Origin: a phage
Length of the DNA stretch: 64,000 nucleotides
Direction: 5' to 3' (one strand)
Sequence record: NC_101837.1
Under the pieces are notes generated by a model. It saw only the letters and a program-made list of their open reading frames with translations. It did no database searches and was not told the DNA's origin. The position numbers and the translations under genes were made by a program. The number at the start of each line of letters is the position of its first letter. Within the stretch, counting starts at the first letter, position 1. Shown one piece after another: positions 5,218 to 41,616 of this stretch.

Positions 5218-5706
5218 ATGAAACTTGATAAAAATGTTCAACGAAAAGCTTTCTTGGATATGATCGCATATTCGGAAGGCACAGATAATGGTAGACAACC
5301 TACCAAGGATCGGGGGTACGATGTCATAGTCGGAGGCAAGCTGTTCAGCGATTACAGCAAGCATCCCGGTGTTTACGTTAAGCTAAATGCTAAGCTTACC
5401 TCCTCCGCTGCTGGGCGTTACCAGGTTTTGGAGAAGTTTGCTAAACACTACATGAAACAGTTAGGATTACCAGATTTTGGCCCTGACAGTCAGGACAAGA
5501 TTGCGTTGCAACTGATCCGTGAGTGCAAGGCTCTCGCCGACATTGATGAAGGGCGTATTCATCAGGCCATTTATAAATGCCGCAGCCGCTGGGCAAGCTT
5601 CCCACCACCGCCAGGGGCTGGAAAGCTGTACAATCAGCGAGCAGAAAGTATAGACAAGATGCTGGAGATCTTTAAGAAGGCAGGTGGAGTTGTTACAGAT
5701 GAGTAA
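5218..5706 (+). CDS. endolysin, lambda R-like lytic transglycosylase
   Basis: Near-collinear similarity to lambda R: QRKAFLDMIAYSEGTDNGRQ...GYDVIVGG...AGRYQ...RWASFP. Confidence 0.85.
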   Translation: MKLDKNVQRKAFLDMIAYSEGTDNGRQPTKDRGYDVIVGGKLFSDYSKHPGVYVKLNAKLTSSAAGRYQVLEKFAKHYMKQLGLPDFGPDSQDKIALQLIRECKALADIDEGRIHQAIYKCRSRWASFPPPPGAGKLYNQRAESIDKMLEIFKKAGGVVTDE

Positions 5707-6382
5707 CGGGATTGACTGGTGGAGTGTCTTTAGATACGATACAGGCACTGGAAGGTTGTTTTGGAAGTCCCCACCAAAAAACAAACCTCAACTGATGGGA
5801 AAGGAGGCTGGATGTACTAACATGGACGGGTACAGGGATATAATCTATCGCGGCGTGCATTACTACAGGCATAGATTGGTGTGGGAGATGCATTATGGAC
5901 CAATTCCAGAAGGGTACGAAGTTGATCACATAAAGCCACTTTTCTATTCCGATGGTGTTGCTGATGACAGGATAGAAAACCTACAACTGTTAACACCAGA
6001 AGAAAACGCAAAAAAGGCGGCAGATGACGGATGCCTGGCACGCAAGATACCTAAATCTAACACTGGACACTTGGGTGTATATTTTCATGCTAGAACTGGA
6101 AGGTATGCTGCTTTTGGTAAGGTAGGTCATTACTATAAGAAAGACCTAGGAGAATACGATACCTTAGAAGAGGCCCTTGCTGCTCAAAAGTCTTTTGAAA
6201 GTGGCACGTTTGTCAGGGAATATCGTGGACAGCCTTTAGGGAGGGATAAATCTAGAGGTGTCAGATTTGAAGCAGATAGGGGCAAATGGAAAGTAACTTT
6301 CAGAGGAAAAACGCTAGGCAGGTTTGACACCAAAGAGTCTGCTGAAGCGTGTTACGCAAAGGCTCTTGCTGAAAGATTGTAA
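5699..6382 (+). CDS. HNH homing endonuclease with AP2 DNA-binding repeats
   Basis: GYEVDHIKPLF...NLQLLTPEENAKKA HNH core; two AP2-like repeats (GVYFHARTGRYAAFGKV; GVRFEADRGKWKVTFRG); track start GTG 5684, ATG at 5699. Confidence 0.75.
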   Translation: MSNGIDWWSVFRYDTGTGRLFWKSPPKNKPQLMGKEAGCTNMDGYRDIIYRGVHYYRHRLVWEMHYGPIPEGYEVDHIKPLFYSDGVADDRIENLQLLTPEENAKKAADDGCLARKIPKSNTGHLGVYFHARTGRYAAFGKVGHYYKKDLGEYDTLEEALAAQKSFESGTFVREYRGQPLGRDKSRGVRFEADRGKWKVTFRGKTLGRFDTKESAEACYAKALAERL

Positions 6383-6390
6383 CAGTATCA

Positions 6391-6419
6391 TTGACATGAC
6401 CACACGGACGTGGTATTGT
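6391..6419 (+). promoter_or_regulatory. sigma70-like promoter
   Basis: TTGACA, 17-bp spacer, TATTGT; AGGGAGGG RBS precedes ATG 6451. Confidence 0.5.
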
Positions 6420-6450
6420 TACCTCATACAATGTTAGGGAGGGTTTAACC

Positions 6451-6657
6451 ATGAAAGATTTTCTGTTGGCAATTTTGTTCATGGCAGCATGTCTGGCCTG
6501 TGGTGTCGTGTTTGCAGGTGAAACAGCGTATCTTGTCGATGTATATCGGGACAATGGTAAACGTATTTGCCTTTATGAGACAAGCCAAGGTGAGCTCTAC
6601 GAGCTTGTGAAACAAGGCGAGGCAGGTTCCTGCCCTCGCACCCATTTCTTTGAATAA
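6451..6657 (+). CDS. small putative lipoprotein (68 aa)
   Basis: N-terminal hydrophobic signal with lipobox-like MAAC/LAC; strong RBS. Confidence 0.45.
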   Translation: MKDFLLAILFMAACLACGVVFAGETAYLVDVYRDNGKRICLYETSQGELYELVKQGEAGSCPRTHFFE

Positions 6658-7131: not shown

Positions 7132-7414
7132 GAAACCTTTAAAAGAGAAATTTGATAAGACAGCTTTTGTATTCGATACACCTCTGGACGACATCATCAG
7201 AGGTATGCAATCCTTGTATCGGAAGGCTGAATCTGAGCAGTTGTCTGAATCAGAACTTTACTGGCTTGGTTGGTGGGAGTTAAACCTGCCTAAAGCTGAA
7301 AGTTCTTGTCTGAGAACTGTTAAAACGTGCGCCCAAGAAAACGCTGCACTTGGAATCTACCACAAAAGGAAAAGATCAACAAAAAGCTCTCCAAGAAAGA
7401 CCAAAAAGTCTTGA
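7124..7414 (+). CDS. hypothetical protein, basic C-terminus
   Basis: ATG 7124 overlaps upstream stop. Confidence 0.4.
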   Translation: MAKKPLKEKFDKTAFVFDTPLDDIIRGMQSLYRKAESEQLSESELYWLGWWELNLPKAESSCLRTVKTCAQENAALGIYHKRKRSTKSSPRKTKKS

Positions 7415-7440
7415 CAAAAGTGTTATTAATCTGATATTAT
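7411..7440 (+). promoter_or_regulatory. sigma70-like promoter
   Basis: TTGACA 7411-7416, then TATTAT about 18 bp downstream. Confidence 0.55.
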
Positions 7441-7473: not shown

Positions 7474-7782
7474 ATGCTTAAAATTTTTATTGTTGAAGAT
7501 AAAGATATTGTCCAGTTGTATGCAAACGAGAATCATAAAGGTATGATTCTGAAGAAGGCAAGCAACCTTCATGAAAACACAATTCAACCTGGCGATGTAA
7601 TTAAGATCTGTGGTTATATGATATCAGACTCCTTGATGAAAATAACCCACCACTGGGGGTCTAATCCGTTCCTTTTTGAAAAGTATTGGGATGTTGAGTC
7701 ACTTATTGCAGAGAGTGATGATGCATTCCATTACAGCATCCAACCATCTTGCAGAATAACTAACAGGAGGGTCTTTGAGTAG
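7474..7782 (+). CDS. hypothetical protein (102 aa)
   Basis: ORF after promoter with AGGAG RBS. Confidence 0.45.
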   Translation: MLKIFIVEDKDIVQLYANENHKGMILKKASNLHENTIQPGDVIKICGYMISDSLMKITHHWGSNPFLFEKYWDVESLIAESDDAFHYSIQPSCRITNRRVFE

Positions 7783-8914
7783 AGAATATCCACTTATTGA
7801 GTCCATAGATTGTCTGGCTGATCTTCTTGAACCTGACGCTATAGTTTATTATGACTTCGATCAGGTTGCATATCAAGCTGCAGCAAGTTGTGAAAAAAGG
7901 ACAATTGAGGTAACACACAAAGCCTCCGGACGTAAGAAGATGTTTAAAACACGAACAGAGTTCTGGGGGCGGCAGAAGAACACCGTTGGTGGTTGGTTAA
8001 AAGCTGAGAATACCAACCGTGAAGCTGCATGTAAAAAGGCTGGCAAGGAGTTTATTCCGTGGACACGAGAAGATTTCGATGTCTTGGATATCCAAACCCC
8101 TGATCCTGTAGAGAACTGCTTGCACACAATTAAGTGTAAAGCTAATGCAGTCCTTAATTATCTCGGTATTCCGGAAGATCGGTGCGTGGGGGTACTTGGA
8201 GGCACAGGTAATTTCAGACTAGATCTTCCCATGCCGGAAAGATATAAAGCCAACCGTAACAATACTCTTCGACCACTGCTGCTTGGAGATGCAAGACAGT
8301 ATCTCCAAAAGCAGTATAATGCTCAAGTGATCAACGGTATCGAGGCTGACGACTGGTTAGCTATCCAGCAATTTGAAGGTTGGAACCACTACCAAAAAAC
8401 AGGTAAGTTCAACAAGTTTATTATCTCTATTGATAAGGACCAAAGAACACTACCGGGGCTTGTGTTCGATCCCATGCGAAACGATAAGGGAGATTTTGTA
8501 AGAGAAACCCCTATGCTGATCGATAACGGTATGGGGAACATCTTCATGAAGCCTAATGGAGAGGTTGGTGGTTACGGAATGCTGTTCTTCGGATACCAAA
8601 TGCTGTGTGGTGACTCTGCTGACAACATTAAGCCGTATCAAGGACTTATCGGTAAGGGTAAGTTCGGAGATGCCTCAGCATTCTACCTACTGTCTCAGTG
8701 CAGCACTCCAAAGGAGATGTGGGTGGCTATTATTGATCAGTACAAGAAGTGGTTCCCAAAAGGTGTTGTTAAGTATACTGACTTCAATGGTATTGATCGT
8801 AGAATTTCCGTAGGTCAGTGGATGAGTATAATTTTTGACTGTTTGTATATGAAGCGAACATTCAATGATCAAACAAAACTTGTTAACGTTCTTAGAAATG
8901 TTGGAGCAATTTGA
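7775..8914 (+). CDS. 5'-3' exonuclease / flap endonuclease
   Basis: GIEADDWLA motif typical of FEN/5' nuclease family; TTG start after AGGAGGG. Confidence 0.7.
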   Translation: MSREYPLIESIDCLADLLEPDAIVYYDFDQVAYQAAASCEKRTIEVTHKASGRKKMFKTRTEFWGRQKNTVGGWLKAENTNREAACKKAGKEFIPWTREDFDVLDIQTPDPVENCLHTIKCKANAVLNYLGIPEDRCVGVLGGTGNFRLDLPMPERYKANRNNTLRPLLLGDARQYLQKQYNAQVINGIEADDWLAIQQFEGWNHYQKTGKFNKFIISIDKDQRTLPGLVFDPMRNDKGDFVRETPMLIDNGMGNIFMKPNGEVGGYGMLFFGYQMLCGDSADNIKPYQGLIGKGKFGDASAFYLLSQCSTPKEMWVAIIDQYKKWFPKGVVKYTDFNGIDRRISVGQWMSIIFDCLYMKRTFNDQTKLVNVLRNVGAI

Positions 8915-39133: not shown

Positions 39134-39260
39134 CACACAATTAGCTGCCCGGCTAAAGTGCTGGAAGCACCTATAACACATCTTTCAACTAAATTTCCTA
39201 CCACCACAATCACTTACCTCCCACACATGACTGTTTGCTTGTTTAGTGAGCAGTCATGCC

Positions 39261-39288
39261 TTGACATTCTTGCCTATCTTGATAAAAT
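39261..39288 (+). promoter_or_regulatory. sigma70-like promoter with no ORF downstream
   Basis: TTGACA, 16 bp, TAAAAT; downstream 250 nt is purine-rich and non-coding. Confidence 0.45.
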
Positions 39289-40663
39289 TAAGTTCTTCTC
39301 TTTTCTTTTACCGAGTAATTCGGGTTTTCTGTTCTCTTCGGTTTGAAGGGGTATGGAGATACACCTGAGTGAACAGGGTGAACAACCGAACCTTTGGCTA
39401 TGGCATTAGCATGGCGAAGCGGACGGGTGACGAAAGAGGGGCCGGAGGACACCAGTCACTGCCATATGATATATGGGTGATAACCTGAAGAGTCTGAATA
39501 AGTGTTTAAGTACCAGTCAGAGGAAAAGGTGAATGGTAGCCGAAGGGGGATGGGGGGTTTCTTGTATCTTTAATTTGTATATTATGTATACACTTGTAAA
39601 CCAATCTCATCTGAATCTGTTTACCACACAAAGCGGATAGAGACAAATATCACCTATTAAACTTGAATTATTTATAGAAAATACCACAACACCAATTAAG
39701 TCTTTGATTTTAAACACAAATCCTACAGATATTCAACCTCCATATTTAACATACTCGTAACATATTCCATACTCTACCTGTCTGATCAATTTACCCAACT
39801 ACATCCCCATATTTTCCCTGTCTGTACTACCCCATCCCCGCCGGGAGTCCCGTCATATCTGGCTTTCCAGCAAATATCACACCCACAAATATCATTGCCT
39901 GAAGAGGGTTTCATCCCATAATACATGCCTTACATGAAGAGCGCTTCATACACCACGTAAATTTTTTAATTGACCTCCCCGCCGCCGGAGAGGTTGGCTT
40001 TTCCCCACACAGACCTGAAGAGTCAGCCAGAAATATCTGAACAGGTCCAGTTCTGCCTTGTCATGAGCCGTAGCGACTGGAGTGCTGCCAGGCGGACGGA
40101 ATGGGAATACTTCTCATTCTTATAATAATTCTCAAATATCGAGGCAGTGAGGCAAATTAATAGGTGAGGCCGTTCACACAGTGGCACAACATTTGCAATC
40201 TATTTTGTGGGGGTGAATGAGAATACCTATCATTGTGAGAACTGTTATCATTACGGGCAATTTAACATAATACCCATTATGCGCACCACTGGCGATCCAT
40301 ACAGGGATTGATAACATGAGTTACAGTTTACGCATATAACAATCATATTTCTTACTATTTGTGTGGGATATAGTTAGCAGCCGATAGATTAGATATTGAC
40401 CTGTGGACTTCCAACCGTCTAGACGTCTAAACGCCCACACAACAAGGATTATACATACATTACTGAATGTAAACAGGGCCGCAAAAATGCTACCATACCA
40501 GTTTGTAAATTTTTCATGCAGCACTTGACAAAGAGAGGAAAAACTTGTCTGACATGCTGGGCATACTTCACACCTTAAACATACTCAACACTGGATACAA
40601 TAACAATTGTTACTATTGCATGCCTCACTGTTCACGTATAGACTATTTGCTCAAAAATGATAA

Positions 40664-40955
40664 GCCATGCCATTCGTTTGCATGATAACAATAACGATCA
40701 ACAACAATAAAGACTGAAATGATAACGTTGTTGATTTGACTGACTAACAATTAACAGGCTAATAATCTATGACATAATATAAAAGCAGGGCAACTATTAG
40801 CAGATCTATAGTTGCCTTGCTTGTTATGTCATGATTAACTAAATACAAGGCAACTATGATCTGATTAATAGTTTGCAGACAAACTATCACGGGGGTGATG
40901 GTTACTGCTTTTATATTATGTCGCGACTCCGTCGCGCCATGCCATTCGTTTGCAT
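40664..40955. repeat. composite repeat: 20-bp direct repeats flanking 18-bp inverted repeats and iteron-like motifs
   Basis: GCCATGCCATTCGTTTGCAT at about 40664 and 40936; GACATAATATAAAAGCAG (40771) and its reverse complement (40905); AAGGCAACTAT-like motif in both orientations between them. Confidence 0.5.
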
Positions 40956-41616
40956 AGTTGCCTTATTGTTACAGATAAAATAATTGTATTGTTAATTATT
41001 TCTTATCTTTCTATTAGTCATCTAATGATTCCAGTTAGTATAGTAACGTACAGTAAACATTAGACGACTAAAGATTTCTCTGATTATGATAACTTGCCGT
41101 GACAATTTCAGACTGTTTACGAAAAATGTTGACACCTGAGCTGATTTATGTTATGCAATTTAAACGAATAATTATTTTATGCAGGTATTGACTATTCTGT
41201 TATCCTATGGTCGGAATAAATACTTAGCAGGCTATAGAATGGTGAGCGTACGTAAATTCTGAGATCTGTCGGCTATAGTTATACTCGATTTTTCACGTAG
41301 AACACGCTTTTTGGTTTGTGTAAGTGTATGACTTATAAAGATTTTTAGTTGTTGACAAGATATTGAAGATGTGCATCAGGTTAAATTTTGTGCAATAGCT
41401 GCATTACGTGCAATTTTGGAAGGAAAACGGGTAAAAATAGCACCGCTACCACACAATGAAAGGTTATGCAATAGTTATTTTACATGTATATTTGTACAGT
41501 GTGTGGGATTGATGGCTCGTCAATTATTCCACTTGCCAGGTAGGGCCGTTTATGGTAGGGAGGAAGAGCAGACAAAAAGAAAGGGACCTAAGCCCCTTGA
41601 TAATTCAGTTAAAAAA

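Follow-up and report, generated by a model that had tools for sequence, protein, structure and literature searches.

Bacteriophage T4 encodes Spackle (gp61.3), a periplasmic protein whose 97-aa precursor loses a signal peptide of 22 residues; the protein carries one Cys-Cys bond, and binds and inhibits the tail lysozyme gp5 (PMC7650644). Proteins of the Llp/Cor type are lipidated, are encoded beside the gene of the receptor-binding protein, and act from within the periplasm by jamming the plug of a TonB-dependent receptor in the outer membrane (PMC9586334). The Vequintavirinae depend on ECA (wecB) and on LPS outer-core glucose (waaC, waaG) (PMC8594841), and all of their genera encode a SleB-like cell-wall hydrolase that has a signal peptide and was toxic when expressed in E. 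coli (PMC7344957). In the gene table of one such phage, rV5 (DQ832317), ORF90 (ABI79156.1) is listed with 68 aa, 7603 Da and a pI of 4.8, without an assigned function or support from mass spectrometry; its GenBank label reads "putative membrane protein; contains transmembrane domain".

The stretch of phage DNA analysed here (NC_101837.1, 64,000 nucleotides; hereafter the window) carries the same gene. An ATG-to-TAA open reading frame at 6451-6657 on the plus strand (stop codon included) encodes a 68-aa protein, MKDFLLAILFMAACLACGVVFAGETAYLVDVYRDNGKRICLYETSQGELYELVKQGEAGSCPRTHFFE, with a precursor mass of 7.6 kDa (7603.7 Da as computed), and all 68 residues were identical to rV5 ORF90 by tblastn. 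The surrounding region was 100% identical to that of Escherichia phages rV5_ev147, rV5_ev156, nimi and RudolfGeigy, and 95-99% identical to that of more than 100 further Vequintavirus genomes; judged by this sequence comparison, the window is Vequintavirus DNA, from an rV5-like coliphage (a myophage). The RudolfGeigy counterpart, bas52_0204, is labelled "hypothetical protein". Two other records name the same 68-aa ORF a "tail fibers protein" (MW883061.1, 94463-94666) and a "lysozyme" (KR698074.1, 67700-67903), which look like annotation errors. Moreover, 19 records named "Campylobacter phage" (within MG065644-MG065682) had DNA that was ~98% identical, over the region, to that of rV5-like coliphages, and are probably mislabelled or contaminant assemblies. 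Elsewhere in the window, ~2.1 kb at ~39200-41370 held no ORF of at least 70 aa on either strand, and this gap is probably the "non-coding" region 104013-106618 of rV5 (PMC3606486). An Rfam scan of the whole window returned no match.

At the family level, the 68-aa protein matched the PHROG 4641 profile over its full length (positions 1-68 of 68, E = 4.4e-28) and carried the core motif T-x2-L-x-D-x-Y ... C-x-Y ... C-P, which places it in the PHROG 4641/rV5 ORF90 family; PHROG 4641 has no assigned function. The 68-aa ORF was kept in 192 phage records, and the family comprised 231 protein clusters in a large database, spanning at least the genera Vequintavirus, Mydovirus and Seunavirus plus several unclassified lineages. 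An HMM search of 1.84 billion representatives gave ten matches, among which three long repeat proteins (P0013, P0016 and P0017) matched via single hairpin-like stretches and were judged spurious on reading. Searches of Pfam, NCBIfam and PADLOC with the 68-aa protein gave sub-threshold noise only, and a profile search of the PDB by sequence found no match at E <= 10. Both the gene and its promoter had been annotated before, and the feature itself is not new; what the sequence comparisons below add is evidence pointing to a periplasmic mini-protein released by cleavage, as opposed to a lipoprotein or a membrane protein, together with the breadth of the family and its apparent mobility.

The predicted mature part of the protein was the more conserved one. 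It covers residues 23-68 (6517-6654, plus strand; 46 aa, 5.27 kDa, pI 4.9), with a computed mass of 5273.8 Da in the reduced form and 2 Da less when oxidised. Against two relatives of 74% and 63% identity, dN was 0.089 and 0.171 in the mature part and 0.40 and 0.70 in the signal region, i.e., ~4-fold higher in the latter, with dS saturated in both comparisons (at least 1.8, or not computable). The ORF is a real gene, and its mature domain is under strong purifying selection. Residues T25, L28, D30, Y32, C40, Y42, C61 and P62 were invariant across the family (P62 in one alignment, and in at least 90% of the sequences in another). Exactly two cysteines were found in the mature part of each of the 123 database relatives; in the window protein they are Cys40 (6568-6570) and Cys61 (6631-6633), which on this pattern of conservation are probably joined by a disulfide. 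AlphaFold returned a small four-stranded beta-barrel (pLDDT 89.4, pTM 0.69), and a structure search with this model gave no informative match. The mature surface was nearly frozen within the E. coli lineages yet differed between genera, and the invariant residues were mostly fold-determining; as read from the sequences, the between-genus surface differences suggest a specific protein partner that varies with the phage or host group.

Upstream of the gene lies a sigma-70-type promoter at 6391-6419 (plus strand), which consists of a -35 element TTGACA (6391-6396), a 17-nt spacer, TG at 6411-6412 and a -10 element TATTGT (6414-6419). It agrees with the consensus at 10 of 12 positions, has an extended -10, and corresponds to the "Sigma70-type promoter P90" of the rV5 annotation. 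By itself the promoter scan was not above chance (seven sites per 3 kb versus 4.8 +/- 2.2 in shuffles), but the promoter can be taken as real because its position is conserved across lineages. A promoter of at least 10/12 was found 56-61 nt 5' of the ATG in rV5 (TTGACA-17-TATTTT with TG), Klebsiella phages KB57 and BIS47 and Cronobacter phage GAP31 (TTGACA-17/18-TATCAT), and Escherichia phage A5-4 (a perfect TTGACA-16-TATAAT, after a terminator-like hairpin). In the diverged L009 lineage, TTGACA-17-TATACT with TG stood ~60 nt 5' of the small gene. Thus six lineages with diverged DNA keep a promoter of at least 10/12 at about -60 from the ATG, while the homologous loci of Serratia phage Kashira and Pectobacterium phage POP18 showed no such promoter. 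A ribosome-binding site, AGGGAGGG, was read from the sequence at 6436-6443 (plus strand), with 8 nt between GGAGG and the ATG, and AGGAG-type sites were likewise present at the homologous loci compared. The initial annotation of this DNA had proposed a small gene encoding 68 aa at 6451-6657 with its own promoter and a strong ribosome-binding site, and both points are borne out: the ORF is there with the given sequence, its promoter is P90 and is conserved in position in six lineages, and the ribosome-binding site lies at 6436-6443. A host-type sigma-70 promoter implies that transcription is probably early. A second strong sigma-70 promoter was observed downstream at 7411-7440 (plus strand; TTGACA-18-TATTAT with TG, 11/12), which equals P93 of rV5; 3' of it, a 102-aa ORF at 7474-7782 (plus strand) matched phrog_14449 (E = 2e-71), a family labelled "transposase", and no Pfam domain supports that label.

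The N-terminal part of the protein has the organization of a Sec signal peptide. Residues 1-22 (MKDFLLAILFMAACLACGVVFA; 6451-6516, plus strand) are predicted to form such a peptide, with a signal peptidase I site at VFA-G between residues 22 and 23. By a rule-based test (n-h-c organization of the presequence, and residues at -3 and -1 that are small and uncharged) the window protein qualified, and the cleavage call was made from such rules together with comparison of the family. The n-h-c presequence was kept in all of the relatives, at first among 21 checked by hand and then among the 123 from the database. An AXA-type signal peptidase I site (AFA, AEA, AHA, VFA, AGA, AYA and other triplets) was found in 122 of the 123, one to three residues ahead of the Thr that is invariant in the mature core, and it was kept downstream even in variants carrying a cysteine in the presequence. 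Since the presequence changes about four times faster than the constrained mature part, we read it as a segment that is cleaved off, a targeting peptide in which hydrophobicity would be the one property that counts. Taken together, the near-universal AXA site, the two mature cysteines of all 123 relatives and the fast-changing presequence indicate that the family members are Sec/signal peptidase I substrates.

The same N-terminus might instead stay uncleaved, so that the protein would be a type II (N-in, C-out) signal-anchored inner-membrane protein with its beta domain tethered at the periplasmic face. Several features are consistent with this: i) rV5 ORF90 was annotated as a putative membrane protein on the basis of TMHMM and Phobius (PMC3606486); ii) the hydrophobic stretch of the window protein, and of the Vequintavirus variants in general, is unusually long (F4-F21, 18 residues) and its n-region, MKD, has about zero net charge; iii) residues 2-16 are helical in the AlphaFold model. 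However, TMHMM is unable to tell signal peptides from anchors, and both the conservation of small residues at -3 and -1 in 122/123 relatives and the fast turnover of the N-terminal sequence speak against an anchor. Moreover, many members have a textbook short h-region followed by a helix-breaking c-region, e.g., MIRTKILIAALLLSSPVFA cut before T. We therefore consider a membrane anchor unlikely, though it is the alternative that survives best, and retain signal peptidase I cleavage as the preferred reading.

The gene was also found outside the rV5-like phages and in varied company. In Mydovirus and Seunavirus, the gene directly 5' of the homologue encodes an SPFH/Band-7 lipoprotein; in KB57 this is KB57_117 (L004, 2533-3423), a 296-aa SPFH/Band-7 protein (Pfam E = 1.5e-21) with a genuine lipobox, GLTGC, and GAP31_159 and BIS47_99 are of the same kind. 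Kashira and A5-4, both unclassified Vequintavirinae, have small hypothetical genes next to the homologue. A further branch of the family (78-81 aa) was represented in an unrelated, siphophage-like E. coli contig, L014 (a 19.9-kb Logan contig of SRR6292466), where the 81-aa member P0116 is encoded at 7885-8130. This contig also encodes an Ant-type anti-repressor, a tape-measure protein, a Kil-like peptide and an IS605 OrfB, and its backbone gave no match by megablast against the phage and complete E. coli collections. The P0116 gene sits in a run of small early genes, immediately 3' of one for a 44-aa hydrophobic peptide. Because this branch sits in an unrelated phage-like contig, the gene appears, from its sequence distribution, to behave as a self-contained accessory unit that moved between phage types.

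Such mobility bears on what the protein might act upon. By analogy, it could be a periplasmic counter-defence or host-takeover factor directed against a host envelope protein, such as an anti-phage system or the cell-wall or envelope-stress machinery. A promoter of the early, host type and the horizontal transfer of the gene into an unrelated phage beside Kil-like small genes would suit such a role, and host defences that act in the periplasm do exist (PMC13128918). However, the protein had no match in PADLOC, Pfam or NCBIfam, the gene context points to no host target, and the case is one of analogy; a host target thus seems rather improbable.

A different kind of envelope function had been put forward in the initial annotation, which described a signal peptide with a lipobox-like cysteine and proposed a lipoprotein that blocks the phage receptor as T5 Llp does. 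In mechanistic terms, an outer-membrane lipoprotein would be processed by Lgt/LspA at Cys14 (or Cys17) and would act like T5 Llp/Cor. The window protein has two presequence cysteines, Cys14 (6490-6492) and Cys17 (6499-6501), neither of which was conserved in the family. By the lipobox rule of PROSITE PS51257, [LIVMFWSTAG](2)-[LIVMFYSTAGCQ]-[AGS]-C follows an uncharged stretch and the Cys lies at position 15-35. In the window protein, and likewise in the three relatives nearest to it, the segment FLLAILFMAAC ending at Cys14 agrees with the core of PS51257, but position 14 is outside the 15-35 range, and a cut there would leave a signal peptide of 13 residues; Cys17 (A-C-L-A-C) does not fit the pattern, with a disallowed Cys at -3. 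Beyond these three relatives, the lipobox-type pattern was absent from the other 120 of the 123, including those of 63-74% identity with a near-identical mature domain. In P0005 (74% identical, with the same gene order), Cys14 is preceded by Leu, which is disallowed in a lipobox; P0006-P0010 (63-73% identical) have no presequence Cys, nor do the homologues of KB57, GAP31, POP18 and P0012. Among the homologues the lipobox was thus not conserved: P0006-P0010 and all other genera and lineages examined were without it. The exported hydrophobic N-terminus of the initial annotation therefore stands, and its lipobox-like cysteine is loosely confirmed, by the core pattern at Cys14; the family comparison, with a lipobox-type pattern in 3/123 relatives versus an AXA-type site in 122/123, does not support a lipoprotein, and lipidation of the Vequintavirus variant itself keeps a small probability.

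The proposed receptor block fared no better. The 68-aa protein does share with Llp its small size and a Cys pair (Cys11-Cys58 in Llp; PMC9586334), and its gene has a host-type promoter. However, the gene at 6451-6657 does not adjoin tail-fibre or receptor-binding genes, its neighbours being those for the ligase, endolysin, HNH endonuclease and 5'-exonuclease; the receptors of the Vequintavirinae are glycans, ECA and the LPS core, and not a protein (PMC8594841); and we found no match to Llp in sequence or fold. An Llp/Cor-type lipoprotein is thus very unlikely, while superinfection exclusion of a kind other than Llp-type receptor block may still be the role of the gene.

The rV5 neighbourhood brings in the lysis genes. 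The order in rV5 is ligase, endolysin (lambda R-like, with no export signal), P90, ORF90, HNH endonuclease, ORF92, P93, ORF93 and 5'-exonuclease, with a spacer of ~62 nt in the unit of endolysin, promoter and ORF90. In the window, a gene for an HNH/AP2-type homing endonuclease (5684-6382, plus strand; phrog_99, E = 3e-49) lies between the endolysin gene and P90. It was present in nimi, RudolfGeigy, rV5_ev147, isim and FV3, and absent from rV5 and most relatives; genomes without the insertion aligned only from window position 6387 on. Because the HNH gene overlaps the endolysin 3' end, the endolysin has 162 aa here versus 156 aa in rV5. The L009 lineage (L009-L011 are metagenomic Vequintavirus-like contigs, of a diverged lineage with a rearranged replication block) keeps the unit of endolysin (72% identical), promoter and small gene, with the exonuclease block 5' of the endolysin and an unrelated gene 3' of the small gene. 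Thus the endolysin-promoter-gene order, with its ~62-nt spacer, kept in rV5 and in rearranged L009, would fit a lysis-cassette component (o-spanin, antiholin or holin partner) coupled to the upstream endolysin, but this is the least probable of the alternatives, given that the adjacency is absent in Mydovirus, Seunavirus, Kashira, A5-4 and POP18 (where an SPFH lipoprotein or small hypothetical gene takes its place), that the HNH gene intervenes in the window, that the mature domain has one Pro and no second transmembrane domain, that no i-spanin gene is adjacent, that rV5 has its spanin pair and holin candidate elsewhere, and that it is hard to see what an inhibitor in the periplasm would do against an endolysin of the cytoplasm. 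The conserved rV5 spanin pair is reported to adjoin the large terminase (TerL) gene (PMC7344957); at that place the rV5 gene table has gene 66 (95 aa) and gene 67 (132 aa, one transmembrane domain), and the proposed rV5 holin is gp129 (PMC3606486). The identities of o-spanin, holin and antiholin were rejected on gene context and this rV5 lysis-gene literature. An inhibitor of the adjacent endolysin was also considered and set aside, as the adjacency was confined to E. coli lineages and the endolysin has no export signal.

Among these readings, a Sec-exported, signal peptidase I-cleaved, soluble periplasmic two-cysteine mini-protein is, in our judgement, probably the best explanation overall, with a Spackle-like binder role as its tentative part. 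Its parts differ in strength. That the gene is transcribed by host RNA polymerase, probably early, and that its product is exported by Sec, cut after Ala22 and present as an oxidised soluble periplasmic beta-barrel is the well-supported part, which we hold with good confidence; within it, we infer cleavage, periplasmic location, disulfide formation and early timing. In this scheme, i) host RNA polymerase would transcribe the gene from P90, probably early in infection; ii) the precursor would be exported by Sec; iii) signal peptidase I would cut it after Ala22 (VFA-GET), releasing a soluble acidic 46-residue beta-barrel into the periplasm; iv) the two invariant cysteines would most likely be joined by DsbA; and v) more tentatively, the mature protein would bind or inhibit a target in the periplasm, at the infected cell's envelope, and would not block a surface receptor.

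As for the partner of such a binder, two plausible candidates are the Sec-exported SleB-like hydrolase, which bears a signal peptide and is conserved in all Vequintavirinae genera, and the wall-piercing tail apparatus with which related phages superinfect. By analogy with Spackle, we propose only tentatively that the protein neutralises a phage peptidoglycan hydrolase or another periplasm-exposed component. A more far-reaching proposal, which we regard as unlikely, is that the family is a new class of phage periplasmic mini-effector: a disulfide-stapled 46-residue beta-barrel, unrelated to Spackle, Llp, Cor or Imm in sequence and fold and mobile between unrelated enterobacterial phages, which would block superinfecting Vequintavirinae (at genome entry or at the wall-piercing enzyme) or disarm a periplasmic host defence.

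Several consequences follow from the preferred reading. The appropriate label for the gene product would be a predicted secreted periplasmic protein, in place of lipoprotein, membrane protein, "tail fibers protein" or "lysozyme". Vequintavirinae rank with the coliphages most often isolated, and phage cocktails make use of them; to our knowledge nothing is known of the changes they make to the host envelope during infection. A constrained, probably early, exported protein of 5 kDa is a cheap and well-defined candidate for such modification, and the mature protein is small enough for chemical synthesis or NMR.

Comparison with known systems places the protein as follows. With rV5 ORF90 it shares all 68 residues, the promoter P90, the downstream genes and the full-length phrog_4641 match, and differs in locus by the HNH gene at 5684-6382 that separates endolysin and small gene in the window; while the published label of ORF90 is a membrane protein without function, the comparison here points to a cleaved soluble periplasmic product. 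Rz1-type o-spanins are likewise small exported phage proteins, and in Vequintavirus the small gene adjoins the endolysin gene; in contrast to them, the lipobox is not conserved in the 68-aa family, Pro occurs once, a partner i-spanin is missing and the promoter is of the host type, and the window gene has HNH genes as its neighbours. T5 Llp/Cor are also small, and Llp is made early after infection and has an intramolecular disulfide (PMC9586334), to which the conserved Cys pair of the 68-aa protein, predicted to be periplasm-exposed, would correspond; however, the rV5 ORF90 family lacks a conserved lipobox, the gene lies away from the receptor-binding protein gene in a phage without a protein receptor, and no similarity in sequence or fold was found. 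T4 Spackle is a small phage protein whose signal peptide matches in length the ~22 residues predicted here, and each has one Cys pair; its all-helical, 75-aa mature form (PMC7650644) differs from the modelled 46-aa, all-beta barrel, and neither Pfam nor a PDB sequence search linked the two. By analogy, T4 Spackle may be regarded as the nearest functional analogue of the 68-aa protein and not as its homologue. If the protein does act as an exclusion factor or hydrolase inhibitor, it would be a second, structurally unrelated example of the Spackle paradigm.
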